Shown here in pieces: positions 40,278 through 55,806 of a DNA stretch of 64,000 nucleotides. Under the pieces are notes generated by a model, which worked only from the letters and a program-made list of their open reading frames with translations, was not told the origin of the DNA and searched no databases. Source of the DNA: Candidatus Hydrothermus pacificus (GTDB taxonomy: Bacteria; Hydrothermota; Hydrothermia; Hydrothermales; Hydrothermaceae); contig MTOH01000002.1 in assembly GCA_002011615.1 (NCBI GenBank), forward strand, positions 207,526 to 271,525. Direction: 5' to 3'. The first letter of the stretch is position 1, and each line of letters opens with the position of its first letter. The translations under genes were made by a program, and so were the position numbers.

Positions 40278-40543
40278 ATGTGAAAGAAAACATAGAGGAG
40301 CTGATTGATCAGGCAAAGATTCTTTTGTTTTCCCAGAATTATAAAGAAGCAGAAAAAATTTTAAAAAAGATTTTAAAGTTGGATAAAGACAATGTGGATG
40401 CCCTTTATCATCTTGGAATTCTTTATGAGACAGTAAATGAGCATGAAAAAGCAGAGGAAATTTATTTGAAAATCCTTGAAAAAGACCCTGATAATAAAGA
40501 AACAAAAGAAAGGATGGAAAGGTTAAAAAATGAAAAATTTTAG
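40274..40543 (+). CDS. Small TPR-repeat protein
   Basis: 89 aa; two TPR-like helical repeats (AEKILKKILKLDKDNVDALYHLGILYE...AEEIYLKILEKDP). Overlaps neighbours at both ends. Confidence 0.55.
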   Translation: MNVKENIEELIDQAKILLFSQNYKEAEKILKKILKLDKDNVDALYHLGILYETVNEHEKAEEIYLKILEKDPDNKETKERMERLKNEKF

Positions 40544-43500
40544 TAACTTTCCTTTGCTTTTAATTGAAGGTATTCCCAGGCCACTTGTGATTTTCAACTC
40601 TGATGGTATGCTGATATATGCGAATGAAAAGGGTAACAATTTTATAAAGGAATTTTTTAGTGATAACGATGACAGGATTAAAGAATTTCTTACTTCTCTT
40701 TACCAGTCAGAAGAAACAACAGACATTAAAAATCTTAATAAAAGATTAGATTACAAAATTTTAAATCTTATGGATGATACCAAAGTTCTATTTATAGAAA
40801 GAGAAAAAAGTATTATCTCCCCTCATGACCTGATGCAATTCTTTGCTGAAATTTCTCAGATTTCAGATATAAATGCGATATTAAACAAAGTTTCAGATTT
40901 CATTTTACATCAGATGGGGGCAGGTAAAGTTACTATATTCCTCTATAGTGAGAGGGAAAGAGTTTACAGACGAATGGCACTCAGTGTGAGACCGCCTTTT
41001 CGCAAAGAAGATTTTAAAAAGGATATGTTTAACTCAGGGGAAGGTTTGACTGGTAAAGTGATACAGCTGGGGACAACCTTCTATGCCCCGGATGTAGAAA
41101 AAGCCGAACACTATTACAGGTCATCTCCCCATGAGAAATCCGAATTAGTAATTCCTATAAAGGATGACCGTATGGTTTACGGGACCATAGGCGTGGGGTC
41201 TGAAAAAGAGAATGCATTTAGTAAAGAAGACATAAAAACAGTTGAAAAGATAAGCAAGTGGCTGTTGTTTATAGTTAAAAACCTTTATGTTTATCAGGAC
41301 GTTTTGAGAGAGAAAAAGGCGATTGAAATTATTGGCAGGATTTCTGAGATATTTAAGAATAAAAATATCAAACAAGAATACAAAGAATTCATTAATCTCT
41401 TGATAAGAGAATATGGATTTTCCGGAGGCGGAATAGATTGTGAAAATATAAATTTCTGGGTAGGAGAAGGAGAACAGGATTTTGGAAATCTACTTAAAGA
41501 AAAATCTGAAAAGCTCTTAAGTGGTTGTTTTTCAACTGAAAAATTTAATTTTTATGTATTCCCCCTGGAGAACCTGGGAGGATTTTTTGCTTTTTCATCA
41601 AAGAGTTTTTATTCTAACCAGGAGATTGAACATATAGAGGATGTGCTGTCATTCTTGGAAAGTTTCCTCGTAAGGGAAATTAGAAAAGAGATTGGTTCAA
41701 TTCACAGGAAAATCTTTGGGACCTTTATAAAGGGAATTCACGATAACAGAAAAGCCAGCGAGATATACGAAGATTTGTGTAAAGTTTTAAATGAAATTTT
41801 TGATAGTGAAAAAAGTTTTATTATTTATGAAAAGGGTAAGAAATGGAATATGGTTGCTTCTTTTCCCAAGGAGATAGAAATTGATTATTCTTTTCTGGAC
41901 CTGAACATAAAGGATGAGTTTTCAGAAGAAAGGATTACAATGTTTTTTGAAAGAAAAGAAGGTTCTGTGGTTATATCTGTGCTCAAACCACGAAATCTCC
42001 ATTCCATTCGACTGGTTAAAGACACCCTTGGTGATTACCTGGACATGATTTTAAAACTTGAGAGATTCCAGAGAAATTCTGAATTACTTTCAACTTTGCA
42101 GAAACTACTGCAGGCTGAAGTGAGTTCTTTTTCCCTAGTAGAATATCTTGACGAAATATCTAAATTGATAAAAGAAAATCTTGGTTACGCCTTTGTGGGT
42201 ATACTCCTTAGAGAAGGCGACTATTTAAAATTGATTTCTGCATGGGGGTCAGAGAAATATAAAGATTTAAATGTAGACTTAAAAATAGGAGAAGAAGGAA
42301 TTTCAGGTGTTGCCTACAAAAAAGGAGAAACTGTTTACTCTCCTGATGTTAGCAAAGACCCATTTTATGTAAAGGTGTCCGATGAAATAAGTTCAGAAAT
42401 TTCTGTTCCCTTAAAGAGCCCAAAAGGACTTCTTGGAACACTCGTGATTTCATCGTCAAAACCTTATGCATTCTCTGATGAGGATATTGCTTTCCTTGAG
42501 ACTCTCGCTGAGCAGATTTCACTCTTTATCCAAGAAAGGCTTGATAAAGAGGAAAAAGAAGAAATTATCTCTTTTCTGGAAGAAGAATCAAAGTTTAACG
42601 AAATGATAATCAGAAATTTGCCTATAGGTATTGTCGTGATTGATAATGATTTAAAAATTAAAAGAGTTAATGAGGGAATGGTACTGCTTCTTAAAAGAAA
42701 TGTGAAGGAGATGTTAGGGAGTAAGATATGTGAGATTTTATGCAGTCATGAGGAAGAGGGTTATTGCAAAATAAAAGATTCCTTTCTTAATAGAAAAATC
42801 CTTTTTAAAGAAAAGTTTATTATTGATGTTGAAGGGGAAAGTGTGCCCATGGCTGTTACTTCCAGTTTTATTTATACATCTTATAATGTGATAAGTGGAA
42901 TCATACTCATGGTGGAAGATATAAGAGAGGTTGCCAAACTTGAGGAACAACTCAGAAGAAGTGAAAGACTTTCTGCAATAGGTAAAATCGCAGCCTACAT
43001 GGCTCACGAAATTAAGAACCCACTTGCAAGTATTTCCACGGGCATAGAATTCGTGAGTGAAAAATTACCACCTGATGAGAGTGTAAGGGGTTATATGAAT
43101 ATGATTTTAAAGGAGATATACAGGCTTGACAGACTTATAAAAAATCTTCTCAGCTTTGCAAGTAGAAAGCCTTTAAATAAAGTTTCTGTTAATGTTTTTG
43201 AAATACTTAATGAGTGCATAACTCTTTTAACTCCAGAGATAATAGGTAAGGATATAAAGTTAAAGACTGATTTTAAAGAAAAAGAATTGATGGTACACCT
43301 TGACCCTGATCAATTCAAAGAAGTTGTCCTGAATCTTGTTAGAAACGCGATAGATGCCATAGACAAAGATGGAGAGGTAGAACTTGGATTTGAAAAAGTG
43401 GGAAGCAGAGTTGTTTTCTGGTGTAAAGATAACGGTAAGGGAATAAGAGAGGAATATGTTCATAATATATTTGAGCCATTTTTCTCCACTAAAAAAGGTG

Positions 43501-43616
43501 GTTCGGGTCTGGGGCTTGCAATTGTTCATAAGATTGTTGAGGACCATGGTGGTAAGATAGAAGTTGAGTCTGATTATGGTAAAGGAACTATTTTTAAAGT
43601 TTACCTTCCTCTTTGA
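40530..43616 (+). CDS. Cytoplasmic multi-domain sensor histidine kinase (GAF and PAS domains, HisKA, HATPase_c)
   Basis: 1028 aa, no TM segment; GAF-like regions, a PAS-like region, H-box (AAYMAHEIKNPLASI), N box (NLVRNAIDA), G1 (DNGKGI), G2 (GGSGLGLAI). Confidence 0.85.
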   Translation: MKNFSNFPLLLIEGIPRPLVIFNSDGMLIYANEKGNNFIKEFFSDNDDRIKEFLTSLYQSEETTDIKNLNKRLDYKILNLMDDTKVLFIEREKSIISPHDLMQFFAEISQISDINAILNKVSDFILHQMGAGKVTIFLYSERERVYRRMALSVRPPFRKEDFKKDMFNSGEGLTGKVIQLGTTFYAPDVEKAEHYYRSSPHEKSELVIPIKDDRMVYGTIGVGSEKENAFSKEDIKTVEKISKWLLFIVKNLYVYQDVLREKKAIEIIGRISEIFKNKNIKQEYKEFINLLIREYGFSGGGIDCENINFWVGEGEQDFGNLLKEKSEKLLSGCFSTEKFNFYVFPLENLGGFFAFSSKSFYSNQEIEHIEDVLSFLESFLVREIRKEIGSIHRKIFGTFIKGIHDNRKASEIYEDLCKVLNEIFDSEKSFIIYEKGKKWNMVASFPKEIEIDYSFLDLNIKDEFSEERITMFFERKEGSVVISVLKPRNLHSIRLVKDTLGDYLDMILKLERFQRNSELLSTLQKLLQAEVSSFSLVEYLDEISKLIKENLGYAFVGILLREGDYLKLISAWGSEKYKDLNVDLKIGEEGISGVAYKKGETVYSPDVSKDPFYVKVSDEISSEISVPLKSPKGLLGTLVISSSKPYAFSDEDIAFLETLAEQISLFIQERLDKEEKEEIISFLEEESKFNEMIIRNLPIGIVVIDNDLKIKRVNEGMVLLLKRNVKEMLGSKICEILCSHEEEGYCKIKDSFLNRKILFKEKFIIDVEGESVPMAVTSSFIYTSYNVISGIILMVEDIREVAKLEEQLRRSERLSAIGKIAAYMAHEIKNPLASISTGIEFVSEKLPPDESVRGYMNMILKEIYRLDRLIKNLLSFASRKPLNKVSVNVFEILNECITLLTPEIIGKDIKLKTDFKEKELMVHLDPDQFKEVVLNLVRNAIDAIDKDGEVELGFEKVGSRVVFWCKDNGKGIREEYVHNIFEPFFSTKKGGSGLGLAIVHKIVEDHGGKIEVESDYGKGTIFKVYLPL

Positions 43617-43654
43617 GTTTTTTGAGTTGAAATTTTTATAATAAATATATAAAA

Positions 43655-45181
43655 ATGGAAGAAAAATATAAAATTTTAATAGTAGATGACGAGGAGGCGC
43701 TTGTTCTTTTCCTTGCCAAGCTCCTCTCGCAGGAATCTCCTGATTATGAAATAAGAACAGCTTATAATGGTGAAGATGCTATAAAGATGCTGGAAGGGTT
43801 TAGCCCGGATTGCATATTGCAGGATATAAAGCTTCCCGATATTTCAGGAATAGAAGTTCTTAAGGCAGCCAAAGCCCTTGATGAAGATGTTCAGGTGATT
43901 ATGATGACTGCATTTGCCTCTATTGAGACGTCTATAGATGCAGTGAAGATGGGAGCCTATGACTACATTCTCAAACCTTTTAAGGCAGAACAGATTAAAA
44001 TGGTGGTGAAAAATGCTCTGACAAAAAGGCGACTTCTAAGGGAAAACAAGAGATTACTTGAAGATTTAAAACGGGCAAATAAAGAATTACAAATTGCTCA
44101 TGAAAAACTTAAAATAGCTAAAGCCGAGGTTGATAAGGAACTTGAAGAAAAACTGAAGATACTCTCAGAGCTTCATAAAATTAGTGACTCCCTGAATGAA
44201 GAACTTGATTTTGAGAAAATCTGTGGAGGAGTTATTGAGGGTGCTCAAAAAATATTTTCTGTACAGGATGTTGCTCTTCTTTTTAATCAGGAAGAGTCGC
44301 CTGATAATCTGGTTGTGAAGTATCTAAATGGTTTTGATGGTCTTATGGAAAGTGGGATGAACCTGGATTTTTATCATCCCTTTTTCAACAAATTAAAGGA
44401 CCAGAGAACCCCTCAGATTATCGAGTATCAGGAGGGGGAGATTAAAGAAATATGTATCGGTCTTTTACAGACAAGTAAGATGGAACCCTTTGGGACATTT
44501 ATGATAGGGAACAGGAATAATACGGAATCTTTTGCAAAAAAAATGGAACTTTTTGATACCTATTTGAATACAATCTCAATTGCTCTCCAGAATTCCATAC
44601 TTTTAGATACTCTTGAAAGAAGCTATGTGGACAGCCTACTTGCCCTTGTAAAAGCCCAGGAGGCGAAAGACAGGAGTATAAAAGGACATTCATCAAGAAT
44701 CGCAAGAATGAGTCATGTTATGGGTAGAAGACTTGGACTTTCTGAAAAAGAATTGAAAATTCTGAGATATGCTGCACTTCTTCATGATATAGGTAAAATA
44801 GGAATAAGAGAGTATATTCTTGAAAAACCCGCTGAACTTAATAAGGAAGAATACGAAAAGATAAAAGAGCACATAGATATAGGTATAGAAATAATAAAAC
44901 CCTTAAAATTTTTACGGGAAGCCATCCCGATTATAAGACATCACCATGAGAATTATGATGGGACCGGATATCCTGATGGACTTTCAGGTGAAGATATACC
45001 TCTGGGTGCAAGGATTCTCGCAATATGTGATGTATATGATTCTATAACCAATGAAAGAGTTTATTCTAATAAACTCACAAAAGAAGAAGCAATAAATTTT
45101 CTAAAAAAATATTCAGGAACAAAATTTGACCCTTTTATTCTGGAAAAATTTATAAAGGTGATAGGTCATGAAGGAGCCTAA
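43655..45181 (+). CDS. Response regulator with receiver domain and HD-GYP phosphodiesterase domain
   Basis: 508 aa; receiver motifs (ILIVDDE, phospho-acceptor Asp in LQDIKLPD), coiled-coil linker, HD domain (LHDIGKIG) and GYP motif (HHENYDGTGYPDGL). Confidence 0.85.
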   Translation: MEEKYKILIVDDEEALVLFLAKLLSQESPDYEIRTAYNGEDAIKMLEGFSPDCILQDIKLPDISGIEVLKAAKALDEDVQVIMMTAFASIETSIDAVKMGAYDYILKPFKAEQIKMVVKNALTKRRLLRENKRLLEDLKRANKELQIAHEKLKIAKAEVDKELEEKLKILSELHKISDSLNEELDFEKICGGVIEGAQKIFSVQDVALLFNQEESPDNLVVKYLNGFDGLMESGMNLDFYHPFFNKLKDQRTPQIIEYQEGEIKEICIGLLQTSKMEPFGTFMIGNRNNTESFAKKMELFDTYLNTISIALQNSILLDTLERSYVDSLLALVKAQEAKDRSIKGHSSRIARMSHVMGRRLGLSEKELKILRYAALLHDIGKIGIREYILEKPAELNKEEYEKIKEHIDIGIEIIKPLKFLREAIPIIRHHHENYDGTGYPDGLSGEDIPLGARILAICDVYDSITNERVYSNKLTKEEAINFLKKYSGTKFDPFILEKFIKVIGHEGA

Positions 45182-45539
45182 AAAAAGAATTTTATTTGTT
45201 GAAGATGAGGCGCCTCTTGCTTTTTTTGTAAGTCAAATTCTCGGTAGTGATTATGAAGTTGAGAGTGTGAGAACAGCAGAAGACGCATTAGAAAAGTGGA
45301 AAGAAAATCCTTATGAACTCCTTGTAACAGATATAAGACTTCCTGGCATGTCGGGCCTTGAACTTGTTGCACATCTGCAAAGAGAATATCCTGATATTAA
45401 ATTTATAATTGTAACGGCTTATGACTCATTTGATATAAGAGATAAAGTGAAAAAACTGGATGGTCTAAAAGGCTTTTTCCCGAAGCCATTCTCTATAGAA
45501 GAGTTAAGGAATCGAATAAAAGAAATACTCGAGAAATAA
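45168..45539 (+). CDS. Stand-alone CheY-like response regulator receiver protein
   Basis: 123 aa; receiver motifs (ILFVEDE, LLVTDIRLPGMSG, conserved Lys in GFFPKP). Confidence 0.8.
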   Translation: MKEPKKRILFVEDEAPLAFFVSQILGSDYEVESVRTAEDALEKWKENPYELLVTDIRLPGMSGLELVAHLQREYPDIKFIIVTAYDSFDIRDKVKKLDGLKGFFPKPFSIEELRNRIKEILEK

Positions 45540-52596: not shown

Positions 52597-53541
52597 ATGA
52601 AAAAGAAAATTCTTTCCTTAAAGGAACTTTCTGAGAGAACTTATGGACTGGCATCAGGACACAGGGCCTGTGCAGGTTGTCCGTTTCCGTCAATTGTAAA
52701 AATGATTTTAGGGTCTTCTGATTATCCTGTTGTGGTTGCAAATGCAACCGGGTGCCTGGAAGTTGTAACCACAATTTTTCCCTATACCGCATGGCCTGTC
52801 CCATGGATTCATTCTGCCTTTGAAAATGTTGCAGCTACAATTTCAGGGGTTGAAACTGCTTTTAAAGCACTTCAGAATAAAGGAGTTATGCCCGCAGATA
52901 GGAAAGTCAATTTTGTGGCTTTTGGAGGTGATGGAGGAACATATGATATAGGTCTTCAATCTCTGTCCGGTGCTATGGAAAGAAGGCACAATTTTCTCTA
53001 TGTCCTTTATGATAATCAGGCTTACATGAATACAGGGATTCAAAGGTCCTCTGCAACTCCTTTTGGTGCTCACACCACAACTTCTCCTGCGGGCAAAGTT
53101 ATTCCAGGCAAAGTTCAGCACAGAAAAGATATAACAGAAATAGTGGCTGCCCATGATATTCCCTATGCAGCCCAGGCTTCACCTTCTCACTGGGGAGACC
53201 TGATAAGAAAGGCAAGAAGAGCTTTTGAAATTGAAGGACCCAAATTTATTGCTGTTATCTCACCCTGTGTTCCCGGATGGGGATATGATGAGAGCGAATC
53301 CATAGAACTTGCGAGACTTGCTGTTGAGACCTGTTTCTGGCCTCTTTATGAAATAGATAATGGAATTTATAAGCTAAATTATAAACCTAAGAATAAATTG
53401 CCCGTTAAAGTATGGCTTGAAAAACAGGCAAGATTTAAACATCTTTTAGATAAACCTGAACTGATAGATGAAATTCAAAACAAAATTGATGAGAAGTGGA
53501 AAAAACTTCTCTGGCTTGATGGTAAAAAAGTAGAGGATTAG
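52597..53541 (+). CDS. porB: Pyruvate:ferredoxin oxidoreductase, beta subunit (TPP-binding)
   Basis: 314 aa; Cys ligands (CAGCP...C) and TPP-binding GDGG motif (FGGDGGTYDIG). Confidence 0.85.
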   Translation: MKKKILSLKELSERTYGLASGHRACAGCPFPSIVKMILGSSDYPVVVANATGCLEVVTTIFPYTAWPVPWIHSAFENVAATISGVETAFKALQNKGVMPADRKVNFVAFGGDGGTYDIGLQSLSGAMERRHNFLYVLYDNQAYMNTGIQRSSATPFGAHTTTSPAGKVIPGKVQHRKDITEIVAAHDIPYAAQASPSHWGDLIRKARRAFEIEGPKFIAVISPCVPGWGYDESESIELARLAVETCFWPLYEIDNGIYKLNYKPKNKLPVKVWLEKQARFKHLLDKPELIDEIQNKIDEKWKKLLWLDGKKVED

Positions 53542-53658
53542 ACGCTATTTTTTCAACAGATGGAAAGTATAGTGTGAAAGGGGTAAACCCAGAGTAAATC
53601 TGTTCCTGCCTTTTTCATGCAGAACAAATGCTGAGAACCCGATTGTATTAAAAATGTT

Positions 53659-53687
53659 TTGTAATTTAAATTTTTCTACCTTATAAT
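53659..53687 (+). promoter_or_regulatory. Candidate sigma70-type promoter (TTGTAA-N17-TATAAT) for tRNA-Lys
   Basis: -35 at 53659-53664, -10 at 53682-53687; tRNA 5' end at 53707. Confidence 0.4.
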
Positions 53688-53706
53688 TATAATCTCATAT
53701 TTAAAC

Positions 53707-53779
53707 GGGCCGTTAGCTCAGGTGGCAGAGCACCGGATTTTTAATCCGGGGGTCGGAGGTTCAAATCCTCCACGGCCCA
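53707..53779 (+). tRNA. tRNA-Lys (anticodon TTT)
   Basis: 73-nt cloverleaf; anticodon loop TTTTTAA, T-loop TTCAAAT, 7-bp acceptor stem. Confidence 0.85.
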
Positions 53780-53816
53780 TTGTTTATATTTTTGAACCTG
53801 TGAACTTTTACAGCAA

Positions 53817-54923
53817 ATGTCTTTTAAAGTGAGATATCTGGATGTTATTCCTTATAAAGATAAATTTCTTGTTAAAGACCCTCTTGGTATTTCAAAAGAG
53901 ATGCTTCTCAATAGGGAGTCTCTTTTGCTTCTTTCTCTGCTCGATGGCGGGAATTCTATTCAGGATATAAAAACAATGTTTTTGAGAAACACCGGGATAA
54001 TTTTATCTGACTCAGAAATACTGAATTTTGTTCAGGAAATGGATAAAAATTATATTTTATACAACGATAATTTTATTAAAAGGATGGAATTTGAAAAAGA
54101 AAAAATTTTATCAGCTCCTTATAAAGAAATAAATTTTCAACTTGATTTTGAGAAATTAAAAAGAGAAATAGAAAAATATAAAGCTTTGAATGAACAGGAT
54201 ATAAAAGCCATTATTGTTCCCCATATTGATATAAATATCGGTTTAAAAACATATATGAAAACATTCTCCTGTGTTAAAAACCTGAATAAAAAAATATTCT
54301 TTATTTTTGGTGTGCCTCATTCTTATTCAGAAAGCTGTTTTTCTATATTCCCGAAGAACTATAAGATAGGAGAAAATATAGTAGAAATACAAAAGGAAAT
54401 AATAGAAGGAATAAAGAACAAAATTAATTTTGATATTTTCTCAGATGTGCTGGCTTATAAAAACGAGCATTCTGTTGAATTTCCCATAGTATTTTTAAGT
54501 TTAATAGAAAAGGATTTTTATGTGATTCCCTCTCTTGTTTCAAAATCAGATATTTCCTTGCTTAAAAGTCTGGCAGAAAATATATTTGAAGTTATAGCTC
54601 CTTTTAAAGATGAAATTTTACTAATATCAAGTATTGACTTAAGCCATGTGGGAAGAAAATTTGGAGATGAGAAGAGTTTTAATACTGAAGAGATAGACAG
54701 GAAATACATTGAATATCTAAAAAATATGGAAAATGAAATGGCTTTTGATTTTATTGAAAGTAAGAACAATTTCACCAGGATAGATGGACTTTATACAAAT
54801 TTTGTATTTCTTGAAATTCTTAGACTTATGAAAGCAGGTAAATCTGAAGTCCTTGACTATGAAGTGTATTACGAAGATATCACTGACTCGATTGTTAGTT
54901 ACGCTTCTTTAATCTTTAAATAG
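53817..54923 (+). CDS. Memo-family (AmmeMemoRadiSam protein B-like) protein with N-terminal PqqD-like RRE domain
   Basis: 368 aa; residues ~130-368 carry Memo motifs (IIVPHID, FGVPHSYSES, EHSVEFP, SSIDLSHVG); residues ~20-105 resemble PqqD/RRE (LLNRESLLLLSLLDGGNSIQDI ... SEILNFVQEMDKNYIL). Confidence 0.7.
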   Translation: MSFKVRYLDVIPYKDKFLVKDPLGISKEMLLNRESLLLLSLLDGGNSIQDIKTMFLRNTGIILSDSEILNFVQEMDKNYILYNDNFIKRMEFEKEKILSAPYKEINFQLDFEKLKREIEKYKALNEQDIKAIIVPHIDINIGLKTYMKTFSCVKNLNKKIFFIFGVPHSYSESCFSIFPKNYKIGENIVEIQKEIIEGIKNKINFDIFSDVLAYKNEHSVEFPIVFLSLIEKDFYVIPSLVSKSDISLLKSLAENIFEVIAPFKDEILLISSIDLSHVGRKFGDEKSFNTEEIDRKYIEYLKNMENEMAFDFIESKNNFTRIDGLYTNFVFLEILRLMKAGKSEVLDYEVYYEDITDSIVSYASLIFK

Positions 54924-54931
54924 GAGGGAAC

Positions 54932-55177
54932 ATGAAAGGCAGATTGTATGTTACCGAGTTGAAAAGGAGAAAACACAGGAGAAAAAAAATTAAAAAATTG
55001 AGAGAAAAATATCTCAAAGCAGAGACCGAAGAGGAGAAAAAACAAATAATTGAAAAGGCTTTGAGAGTCAATCCCTACCTCACAGAGGGGATGTTCCTTG
55101 AACCTATAAAGAGCAAACTTGGCAAAGCAGGCAAAAGGGAAGGTTTAAAGGAAGAGCAGAAAAAAGAGGAAGAATAG
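54932..55177 (+). CDS. Small lysine/glutamate-rich protein coupled to the Memo-RRE gene (possible partner or substrate)
   Basis: 81 aa; strong SD (AGGAGGG) 6 nt before the ATG, 8 nt after the upstream stop. Highly basic N-terminus, VNPYLTEGMFLEP core, acidic tail. Confidence 0.5.
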   Translation: MKGRLYVTELKRRKHRRKKIKKLREKYLKAETEEEKKQIIEKALRVNPYLTEGMFLEPIKSKLGKAGKREGLKEEQKKEEE

Positions 55178-55184
55178 ACTTTAA

Positions 55185-55472
55185 TTATTCAACCCAGATT
55201 CTTTTATAAAAATAAGATGTGGACTGTGAGCTTCTTTGATGATACACATGTTTTTTTAAACTGTAAATCTTTTCTACATCATTGGTTCTAAAAATCATCC
55301 CGGTCCCTTCAGGTATTCTGATTGTGACTCTGCATGAAGCAATAAGTGTTTTTGCACATGGTTTTCCTGTTAATACTTTTTTTGAAGAAATCCCTCTTCC
55401 CCCTCCCCAAAGGGGGGTGCTAAGAGATATTATAATGAAAGTAATAATTGTCTTTTTTATTAATTCTTTCAT
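55185..55472 (-). CDS. Small hypothetical secreted protein
   Basis: 95 aa; N-terminal hydrophobic signal-like segment, two Cys; no recognisable SD, so coding status is uncertain. Confidence 0.3.
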   Translation of the reverse strand: MKELIKKTIITFIIISLSTPLWGGGRGISSKKVLTGKPCAKTLIASCRVTIRIPEGTGMIFRTNDVEKIYSLKKHVYHQRSSQSTSYFYKRIWVE

Positions 55473-55618: not shown

Positions 55619-55628
55619 TTTAAAAATT

Positions 55629-55702
55629 GCGCCCGTAGCTCAACTGGAAAGAGTGCAGGGTTGCGGACCCTGAGGCTGTGGGTTCAAATCCCACCGGGCG
55701 CA
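55629..55702 (+). tRNA. tRNA-Arg with apparent GCG anticodon
   Basis: 74-nt cloverleaf; anticodon stem CAGGG/CCCTG with loop TTGCGGA (anticodon GCG), 5-nt variable loop, T-loop TTCAAAT, perfect 7-bp acceptor stem. Confidence 0.75.
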
Positions 55703-55806
55703 TTCCTGTTTATTCATTCCATTAATTTTGTTTGAAAAGGTGAGAGAAGATTTGCTTTTATTTATCGCTTATAAATTGCAATTTGCTAATTGTTCATTTT
55801 TACTCT

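Follow-up and report, generated by a model that had tools for sequence, protein, structure and literature searches.

A Memo-family protein with a predicted RRE-like N-terminal domain beside a DUF6800 gene in Candidatus Hydrothermus pacificus

The tRNA-Lys/Memo/DUF6800 locus

The window analysed here, by which we mean the whole stretch of 64,000 nucleotides from contig MTOH01000002.1, carries on its forward strand a gene for a 368-aa protein of the Memo family and, directly downstream, a small ORF for a basic protein of 81 aa, with a tRNA gene on either side of the pair. The features of the locus are as follows.

53659..53693, + strand: sigma-70-like promoter match 5' of tRNA-Lys (TTGTAA-17-TATAAT and TTTAAA-17-TATAAT, 10/12 matches)
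53707..53779, + strand: tRNA-Lys, anticodon UUU (ARAGORN; Rfam 73 bits), 37 nt 5' of the Memo start codon
53817..54923, + strand: Memo gene, 368 aa
53817..54050, + strand: RRE-like winged-helix domain, residues 1-78 (strands 9-13, 16-20 and 29-31; helices 33-41, 48-59 and 65-77)
54066..54113, + strand: long helix that links the RRE-like and Memo domains, residues 84-99, with near-invariant F86
54147..54920, + strand: Memo/LigB-type catalytic domain, residues 111-368 (invariant H136, D138, H168, E217, H218, D274 and H277)
54922-54927, + strand: Shine-Dalgarno sequence AGGAGG, read from the sequence, overlapping the Memo stop codon and ending 4 nt before the DUF6800 ATG
54932..55177, + strand: gene for a DUF6800 small basic protein (PF20607), 81 aa; an autonomous gene, adjacent to Memo in this clade only
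55628-55703: tRNA-Arg (GCG), on the far side of the Memo/DUF6800 pair

The TAG stop codon of the Memo gene (54921-54923) is separated by 8 nt from the ATG of the DUF6800 gene. An earlier sequence-only reading of this DNA had given the outer coordinates of the ORF pair, both protein sizes and this gap exactly, and had noted a strong Shine-Dalgarno sequence. It had also suggested that the flanking tRNA genes could indicate a variable locus, and here it was mistaken, the tRNA-Lys being part of a conserved block with the Memo and DUF6800 genes. Four related loci (L008, L010, L012 and L014) retain a gap of 8-11 nt between the two genes, and the same tRNA-Lys lies directly 5' of the Memo gene in these four and in L013. 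We considered a tRNA integration hotspot and rejected it, since five lineages share the synteny of tRNA-Lys with the gene pair, and genes for an integrase or a mobile element are absent from the surroundings. The promoter match 5' of tRNA-Lys is a possible start of a tRNA-Lys/Memo/DUF6800 transcript, judged from the sequence, and is weak evidence as the count of promoter-like sites in the region was not above shuffle expectation. No promoter-like site was found in the 37 nt between tRNA-Lys and the Memo ATG, and a terminator scan downstream of the DUF6800 gene found none. In the whole window Rfam matched four tRNAs and nothing else, and PHROGs returned nothing meaningful for any of three ORFs.

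The Memo domain and its N-terminal extension

Pfam Memo (PF01875) matched residues 111-365 of the 368-aa protein with 143.5 bits against a cutoff of 27 (E 9.4e-42), and TIGR04336 matched residues 112-367 with 87.4 bits against a cutoff of 26. The family motifs named in the sequence-only reading were found as PH at H136, GVPH at H168, EHS at E217-H218 and SIDLSH at D274/H277, and all four align with the corresponding motifs of human MEMO1. The two models and the motifs together bore out the Memo-family identity proposed from the letters. The domain has the Memo/LigB-type fold. With the full protein as query, phmmer matched nothing in the PDB, and only a profile reached MEMO1. The domain retains the His/His/Glu-His/Asp...His active-site motifs. 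The metal ligands of MEMO1-type proteins are taken to be His49, His81 and Cys244; both His positions are invariant (H136 and H168), while the Cys244 position is occupied by Ser276 and is Ser in at least 90% of the family. The invariant D274 and H277 might stand in for the missing Cys ligand. Furthermore, the HAGxxYP motif, which opens the Memo domain elsewhere, is lost in this WOR-3 clade.

The Memo model does not reach the N-terminal ~100 residues, an extension that is carried and conserved by each of the 67 close homologues found. The sequence-only reading had proposed a PqqD-type RRE for this extension, and that proposal stood for the fold and failed for the sequence. In the AlphaFold model (pLDDT 95.6) the strands and helices follow strictly the order of an RRE, and the RRE fold was seen in two template-free AlphaFold models. 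In two independent structure searches the best matches were for the most part structures of RRE domains, determined either with a leader peptide or without one, which makes solved RREs the closest structural neighbours of the domain, at Foldseek E-values of 0.02-0.2 only. At the level of sequence, PqqD/RRE PF05402 matched neither the query nor any of 26 family N-domains. Pfam and NCBIfam searches of the N-terminal 125 residues and Pfam searches of these 26 N-domains gave no PqqD/RRE model and only weak winged-helix matches (MCM_C and PKMT_2nd; in Pfam, weak MCM_C only for the query itself), and a profile of the N-domain against PDB sequences found nothing significant, with PaaA at E 0.14. Because no PqqD/RRE sequence model matches the extension, the claim is refuted as a claim about sequence; the RRE-Memo architecture is supported by the modelled fold and not by sequence, and it is structure alone that rescues the RRE assignment. 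Matches to EF-hand proteins (troponin C, E about 0.01) trace to a 'DG..s..ei' pattern and were rejected as spurious.

A number of polar positions in the N-domain do not vary between phyla. The invariant R6, D21-P22 and T59 lie off beta3/alpha3, and beta3 itself is variable; these residues may mediate interdomain contact instead. Helix alpha3 carries conserved acidic residues, with E67 present in 88% of the sequences and position 76 acidic in 100%.

Family spread, gene neighbourhoods and the DUF6800 gene

The profile of the N-domain retrieved 1,530 cluster representatives at E <= 1e-3 and 649 at E <= 1e-10. Among the 150 matches listed, about 60% had lengths of 345-445 aa and most others were shorter, resembling gene fragments. 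When ten representatives of atypical length were checked, seven had the N-domain with Memo, while the others gave nothing, TPR repeats and a repeat artefact, one each. Judged by sequence, the N-domain is found almost exclusively in company with Memo. A relative occurs in 336 species genomes, and Aquifex aeolicus aq_1336, which is in UniProt, belongs to the family. Such long-form Memo proteins (about 370-440 aa) occur in WOR-3/Hydrothermia, Aquificota, Calescibacterium, Binataceae, Sumerlaeota, Ignavibacteria and other groups; identity among the relatives drops with taxonomic distance, and the family looks mostly vertically inherited and housekeeping-like. The architecture, which the sequence-only reading had not known to be described, has been catalogued: Memo-like PF01875 fusions are named in Bregman et al., mSystems 2025 (PMC12710340), and the RRE-Finder update (2025) described there includes a model RREFam044, 'Memo_RRE', which the paper covers in a single sentence and a single HMM entry, naming neither a substrate nor a function and analysing no gene context. 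The 368-aa gene is an ordinary member of a large family that is already catalogued and uncharacterised, and its architecture is not new.

The neighbours of the Memo gene are lineage-specific housekeeping genes such as pyruvate:ferredoxin oxidoreductase (PFOR), gyrB, asd, Phosphodiest and FAA hydrolase. In Aquificaceae the order is tig-clpP-clpX-memo with a 4-nt overlap, a ClpC-like ATPase gene lies divergently beside the Memo gene in L010, L012 and L014, and Prok-JAB is found directly 5' of it in the Hydrogenobacter group. Only in L064 and L097 is the Memo gene preceded by a LanKC-like (lanthipeptide-synthetase-like) gene and a precursor-like ORF, the latter for a 95-aa peptide with the sequence ...SSLLSVTCC...; these two loci are the exception in a family whose lineages mostly have neither a RiPP gene-cluster context nor a neighbouring precursor. 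The clpX, clpC, JAB and LanKC contexts hint at a protein/peptide-processing theme for RRE-Memo. No small ORF was found conserved beside the Memo gene across all lineages. It may be noted that several apparent small ORFs near Memo genes are translated tRNA genes.

The N-domain could be read as a generic winged helix serving dimerisation, regulation, nucleic-acid binding or the capping of an active site, with Memo acting on a small molecule and no peptide delivered to it. Such a reading would be consistent with the failure of Pfam, NCBIfam and the PDB profile to detect an RRE sequence signal, with invariant residues that lie outside the canonical cleft, with no precursor conserved nearby and with tRNA genes that immediately adjoin the Memo gene in several lineages; the catalytic domain folds like LigB-type extradiol dioxygenases, whose substrates are small aromatics, and isoprenoids, nucleotide bases and aromatic compounds would be the candidates. 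However, with either of the two methods the best-matching structures were mostly peptide-binding RREs and not DNA-binding winged helices, the order of secondary-structure elements is strictly that of RREs, the fusion class has been accepted as RRE by the RRE-Finder curators (PMC12710340), and the contexts that point to protein or peptide processing are several and independent. We consider a generic winged helix somewhat unlikely on this evidence, though a serious alternative.

The 81-aa protein matched PF20607 in Pfam at residues 9-48 with 41.3 bits against a cutoff of 25. In the family alignment the mean column identity of DUF6800 is 69%, with residues 1-60 uniformly and highly conserved, and as enzyme identity between the same lineages is about 50%, the small protein is more conserved than the enzyme. 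Its profile gave no significant match in the PDB, hence no tie to ribosomal or other known small proteins, and we found nothing mechanistic in the literature on DUF6800 and AmmeMemoRadiSam. Adjacency of the DUF6800 and Memo genes is confined to relatives at >=58% identity (L006-L010 and L012-L014). In sister WOR-3/Hydrothermales genomes the DUF6800 gene is present (68-75% identity) and located away from the Memo gene, either with a PBP1 or Na/H-exchanger gene ahead of it and isochorismatase-thiD following, or within a methylmalonyl-CoA mutase cluster.

The sequence-only reading had offered the 81-aa protein as a candidate substrate or partner of the enzyme. As the cognate substrate or partner, the DUF6800 protein would dock on the RRE-like domain and Memo would modify or hold it, making the pair a minimal RiPP-like or protein-modification cassette. 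The 8-11 nt spacing and the stop-overlapping Shine-Dalgarno sequence are indeed kept in all relatives at >=58% identity, though the outer flanks differ, the tRNA-Lys/Memo/DUF6800 block moves as one unit, and the acidic alpha3 residues might be a fit for the strongly basic N-terminus of DUF6800. Beyond this narrow clade the joint conservation of fusion and small ORF breaks down: DUF6800 was absent within 8 kb of Memo in all of more than 80 loci from more distant relatives, it lies elsewhere in the sister genomes, and in GCA_039630575.1 the two genes are on separate contigs (L017 and L092). The DUF6800 matches with a source name, in a search limited by its word index, included none from Aquificota or other RRE-Memo phyla. 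Furthermore, a substrate of RiPP type would show co-localisation across lineages and a conserved leader with a variable core, neither of which we observed, and a small protein more conserved than its enzyme is the reverse of typical RiPP precursors. A cognate pair is therefore improbable, and a RiPP precursor role for the DUF6800 protein is unlikely. Still less do we expect the combined form, in which a housekeeping RRE-Memo modifies proteins and, in the WOR-3 clade, the basic DUF6800 protein would be a substrate or partner docked on the acidic alpha3 face. The small lysine-rich gene is probably merely a local neighbour of the Memo gene, and the near-coupled tRNA-Lys/Memo/DUF6800 block of the WOR-3 subclade most likely stands for genes that are expressed together, not for an enzyme and its substrate.

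From 38.6 to 62.8 kb of the window, Pfam detected neither an AMMECR1 nor a radical-SAM domain, and the motifs RGCIG and CxxxCxxC were found in none of its 69 selected ORFs; in 91 related loci RGCIG was likewise absent and CxxxCxxC occurred in 8 scattered ORFs. The expectation from sequence that this would be no canonical AmmeMemoRadiSam cassette thus held within about 15 kb. A dispersed AmmeMemoRadiSam system, with this protein as its B component and with AMMECR1-like and radical-SAM partners elsewhere in the genome, would agree with the TIGR04336 score that earned it its NCBI name and with a window of 64 kb in a contig of at least 410 kb, which leaves room for unlinked partners, but in view of these negative scans and of an N-domain outside the TIGR04336 match and foreign to a canonical B protein of about 270 aa, we regard it as very doubtful.

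Possible role and comparison with known systems

Our preferred reading, to which we give about even chances, is that the 368-aa protein is a vertically inherited, peptide- or protein-directed Memo enzyme whose substrate is encoded elsewhere. The RRE-like domain would capture an extended peptide or protein segment by beta-strand addition at the beta3/alpha3 edge, and a residue of the captured substrate would then be offered to the metal-binding Memo pocket. The substrate would most likely be a conserved cellular protein or peptide encoded elsewhere and not a local RiPP precursor, because the family looks housekeeping and its N-domain keeps several polar residues unchanged from phylum to phylum. 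A phosphotyrosine peptide reportedly binds in an active-site-like pocket of human MEMO1, which adds to the hints of a peptide theme. Memo contexts are also said to be tied to nucleotide-base and isoprenoid modification, that is, to small molecules, and this counts against a peptide. We also counted against the preferred reading the failure of PqqD/RRE sequence models, the modest Foldseek E-values, the position of the invariant residues off the cleft, the want of a lineage-wide adjacent substrate candidate, the loss of HAGxxYP in the WOR-3 clade and the Ser at the MEMO1 Cys-ligand position.

To our knowledge, the biochemical reaction of the Memo family has been established neither for human MEMO1 nor for prokaryotes. 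The built-in domain of peptide-recognition type in this large bacterial Memo branch suggests that the substrate is a peptide or protein, and thermophilic members of the branch (Aquifex aq_1336 and the Hydrogenobacter homologues) are tractable for pull-downs and structures. An RRE-type fold in a vertically inherited, non-cluster setting would also matter for genome-mining tools that treat RREs as RiPP markers. Should DUF6800 turn out to be the cognate substrate or partner, the pair would offer a defined enzyme and substrate for assigning a Memo reaction, and an instance of RRE-type recognition outside natural-product biosynthesis.

Among known systems, the protein is likened by fold to the RRE-Memo fusions of RREFam044 (PMC12710340), a class recognised, as here, by structure rather than by sequence; that source gives no context analysis, and the neighbourhoods we observed are mostly housekeeping and non-RiPP. 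In comparison with PqqD, the lasso-peptide B1 proteins TfuB1/TbiB1, LynD, NisB and TigE, the N-domain shows 6-18% identity and no PF05402 match, and unlike discrete or fused RREs, most RRE-Memo lineages have neither RiPP cluster context nor a neighbouring precursor. Strict invariance of residues across phyla, as in the RRE-Memo N-domain, is, we believe, unusual for RREs. Human MEMO1 (3bcz, 7kq8) is without the N-terminal RRE-like domain, has 19% identity to the 368-aa protein and carries Cys244 where Ser276 stands here, and the WOR-3 clade lacks HAGxxY(P) at the start of the domain. The protein passes the cutoff for AmmeMemoRadiSam protein B (TIGR04336) and carries that name at NCBI; with about 100 extra N-terminal residues and no AMMECR1 or radical-SAM neighbour, the name 'AmmeMemoRadiSam system protein B' overstates what the gene context supports. 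The winged-helix domain of this fold is shared by the ribosomal oxygenases MINA53, NO66 and YcfD and by Rickettsia PKMT1/2, all of them protein-modifying enzymes, although they have other catalytic folds, JmjC cupin and methyltransferase, and carry the winged helix at the C-terminus.

The protein joins an RRE-type fold to a Memo domain

In the 368-aa protein an N-terminal extension of RRE-type fold precedes a Memo domain (PF01875) which carries the invariant His, Asp and Glu residues of its family. The residues P135, H136, D138, G165, H168, E217, H218, D274, H277 and G279 were invariant in the family alignment, and in a profile alignment they fall on the PHAGY, GPSHH, EHSIE and SSDFCHWG motifs of MEMO1, which bears out the motifs named in the sequence-only reading. 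The PqqD-like character proposed there for the extension held at the level of fold, but not at that of sequence. Neither the query nor any of 26 family N-domains matched PqqD (PF05402) or another RRE model, and only sub-threshold winged-helix matches were obtained (MCM_C, E 0.002; PKMT_2nd). Nothing significant was found when the N-domain profile was compared with PDB sequences; the best matches, EF-hands, were spurious, and the RRE-containing PaaA appeared at a non-significant E of 0.14. A template-free prediction for the isolated N-domain (residues 1-98), made from an alignment of 26 sequences, had a pLDDT of 95.6 and ran from strands 9-13, 16-20 and 29-31 through helices 33-41, 48-59 and 65-77 into a long linker helix. 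The structures matching this model are listed here with their scores.

Structure matches to the predicted N-domain
TfuB1, lasso-peptide B1 protein solved with its leader peptide: 9.8
TigE, radical-SAM enzyme: 9.5
TbiB1: 9.0
LynD: 7.4
PqqD, two entries: 7.0 and 6.0
ThcOx, PbtF, MibB, TbtB, MccB, MadB, NisB, TglI, McbB: 5.0-6.9

An independent Foldseek search placed TbiB1, LynD, TruD, McbB, ThcOx, MadB and TigE in the top ranks, TbiB1 with probability 1.00 and TM 0.62-0.70, the E-values of these matches being just 0.02-0.2. The full-length model retrieved the same matches through its N-terminal region.

Distribution and gene contexts of the family

RRE-Memo proteins form a coherent family across many phyla. 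All 67 homologues from an indexed search (WOR-3, Hydrothermales and Aquificae) had the extension, among them Aquifex aeolicus aq_1336, named 'MEMO1 family protein' in UniProt. A profile of the N-domain only, scanned against 1.84 billion cluster representatives, matched 1,530 proteins with E <= 1e-3, of which 649 reached E <= 1e-10. Of 150 listed matches, about 60% were 345-445 aa long and the rest were mostly shorter, resembling gene fragments; ten representatives of atypical length gave N-domain plus Memo in seven, and nothing, TPR repeats and a repeat artefact in one each. The TPR protein (P0196, 986 aa; N-domain at residues 4-103, then the repeats, and no Pfam Memo match) was the sole non-Memo architecture among the representatives checked. 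With each species represented by a single genome, relatives turned up in 336 genomes, also from Calescibacterium, Binataceae, Sumerlaeota, Ignavibacteria, Syntrophales and Polyangiaceae.

Clustering of all ORFs neighbouring the Memo loci gave no universal partner gene, and the contexts were lineage-specific.

Gene contexts by lineage (L numbers denote related loci)
Aquificaceae: tig-clpP-clpX-memo, memo last, 4-nt clpX/memo overlap (L001 4766-7125 and about 19 other loci)
Hydrogenobacter group: asd-ProkJAB-memo, then DUF503
One WOR-3 group: gyrB-memo
Another WOR-3 group: Phosphodiest-memo
Binataceae: divergent FAA hydrolase gene by memo
Calescibacterium and a low-GC lineage: memo, then two uncharacterised membrane-associated genes, stop and start codons overlapping (L058 8001-11235; L060 7986-11229; L063 3819-7275; L097 8001-11462)
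Low-GC lineage, LanKC-like region: L097 4718-9296; L064 4679-9248

The two genes after memo encode a 422-426-aa protein and a 280-285-aa protein with an N-terminal TM segment, both lacking a Pfam match, and the overlapping codons in the Calescibacterium loci suggest a conserved operon. In L064 and L097 the 431-aa RRE-Memo homologue lies 130 nt 3' of a gene for a 919-922-aa RamC_N/Pkinase/LANC_like protein; 5' of that gene comes a conserved ORF of 95 aa, which ends in ...GPLSSLLSVTCCEN(Q/P)AE and has an S-xx-S-xx-C motif. This may be a class III lanthipeptide-like cluster adjoining the Memo gene. Since the related L063 lacks the arrangement, these genes look like a secondary insertion.

Among the Hydrogenobacter-type loci (L033-L054), a Prok-JAB deubiquitinase-like gene (138 aa) stood directly 5' of Memo in seven, and the convergent DUF503 gene 3' of it in most. 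Three gyrB loci (L018, L019, L022) have a 68-72-aa ORF between gyrB and Memo which runs 30-39 nt past the Memo start and encodes a hydrophobic C-terminal helix, the L019 and L022 versions being alike.

Taken together, the contexts are those of a gene which behaves like a housekeeping gene, and the independent neighbours ClpX, ClpC, JAB and LanKC carry a protein/peptide theme that is suggestive, not statistically established. MEMO1 shows peptide-binding behaviour. Because of this, the fold and the gene contexts, we infer that a stretch of extended peptide would bind along the beta3/alpha3 edge of the N-domain and be presented to the Memo pocket. The substrate would come from a gene elsewhere and be a conserved protein or peptide of the cell. 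Helix alpha3 has a conserved E67, and position 76 is acidic in all members. It counts against such presentation that the invariant R6, D21-P22 and T59 lie off the canonical cleft and that beta3 is variable. A serious rival, which we regard as rather unlikely, is that the N-domain is a winged helix with a purely structural or regulatory role, attached to a small-molecule enzyme.

The Memo/DUF6800 block

Features of the locus in the window
53659-53693: promoter-like match 5' of tRNA-Lys (consensus match, weak evidence)
53707-53779: tRNA-Lys(UUU), its end 37 nt from the Memo ATG
53817-54923 (+): Memo ORF, 368 aa, stop codon TAG at 54921-54923
54922-54927: AGGAGG, overlapping this stop, 4 nt 5' of the small-ORF ATG
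54932-55177 (+): small ORF, 81 aa, DUF6800 (PF20607)
55628-55703: tRNA-Arg(GCG)

The strong Shine-Dalgarno sequence and 8-nt gap reported for the small ORF were confirmed. A consensus scan, itself weak evidence, showed no promoter-like site between tRNA-Lys and the Memo ATG and no terminator-like site 3' of the small ORF. GC was 0.27-0.30 over the Memo gene (53500-55000) against 0.35-0.40 in adjoining genes; no mobile-element genes are close by, and relatives keep the gene in synteny. Converging on DUF6800 is an ORF of 95 aa (55185-55472, -) whose N-terminus resembles a signal peptide; it is kept in L008, an 86%-identity relative, and matched neither Pfam nor PHROG.

The small ORF matches DUF6800 at 41 bits (cutoff 25). 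With an HMM built from its relatives and searched in Memo loci with 8-kb flanks, we found it immediately after Memo wherever Memo identity was at least 58% (L006-L010 and L012-L014, about five lineages) and in the flanks of no other Memo locus. The gap was 8-11 nt across this clade, and the outer flanks differ: PFOR genes lie upstream in the window and L008, while L010, L012 and L014 have a divergent ClpC-like ATPase gene (800 aa) upstream and gatB downstream. As tRNA-Lys, Memo and DUF6800 stay linked in L008, L010, L012, L013 and L014 despite these differences, the block (53707-55177) is a real, conserved local unit. Both proteins are lysine-rich.

As to the proposal that the small protein is substrate or partner of the enzyme, the linkage of the two genes holds within the clade and is lost outside it. 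Sister WOR-3/Hydrothermales carry a DUF6800 gene, 68-75% identical, after a PBP1 or Na/H-exchanger gene and before isochorismatase-thiD; other WOR-3 lineages have it in a methylmalonyl-CoA mutase cluster, between the B12 subunit and a metallo-beta-lactamase gene; and in GCA_039630575.1 Memo and DUF6800 are on separate contigs (L017, L092). DUF6800 is also the more conserved, with a mean column identity of 69% and 26 invariant columns, against about 50% identity of the Memo enzyme between the same lineages. As a small basic protein that is autonomous and under strong constraint, it does not resemble a RiPP precursor, and a role as Memo substrate or partner is quite improbable. The earlier observation is confirmed and its interpretation supported in part. 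A survey of L092-L096 showed at least three distinct conserved genomic homes for DUF6800 in WOR-3/Hydrothermales, and it bears the name 'Phage protein' in one UniRef entry.

Comparison with known Memo systems

Pfam annotation of 38.6 to 62.8 kb of the window gave queA, a TrkA-like gene, a GAF-PAS histidine kinase, two response regulators (one fused to an HD domain), folP, biotin carboxylase, an S8 peptidase, four PFOR subunits, the Memo/DUF6800 pair, an AP-endonuclease-2 family protein, a Na/H exchanger, two aminotransferases and a metallophosphoesterase, with no AMMECR1 or radical SAM among them. In a motif screen, cruder than an HMM, selected ORFs of the 64-kb window had neither RGCIG nor CxxxCxxC, and across 91 related loci RGCIG was absent and CxxxCxxC occurred in just eight scattered ORFs. 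The locus is not a canonical AmmeMemoRadiSam cassette, as had been stated, and as far as linked genes show it lacks the system context that defines TIGR04336. The signalling genes form a cluster (40530-45539: 1028-aa kinase, HD_5-fused regulator, stand-alone receiver), with tRNA-Met coming next on the other strand.

The view that an RRE-Memo architecture was undescribed was reasonable when stated and is no longer correct. Bregman et al. (mSystems, November 2025, PMC12710340) count 'Memo-like proteins (PF01875)' among high-confidence RRE fusions 'unprecedented in RiPPs', and their updated RRE-Finder includes the model RREFam044 'Memo_RRE'; the paper gives no analysis of function, substrate or context for it. 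The gene is of a kind already catalogued and functionally uncharacterised.

Compared with MEMO1, the Cys of 'DFCH' is replaced by Ser276, and no less than 90% of the family has Ser there. At the start of the Memo domain, MEMO1, the Aquificota members and several more distant ones have an HAGxxYP motif; a short deletion (54110-54150, residues ~99-112; family alignment A1, columns ~140-150) removes it in the whole WOR-3/Hydrothermia branch, including the 368-aa protein, and this loss could mean a changed substrate pocket.
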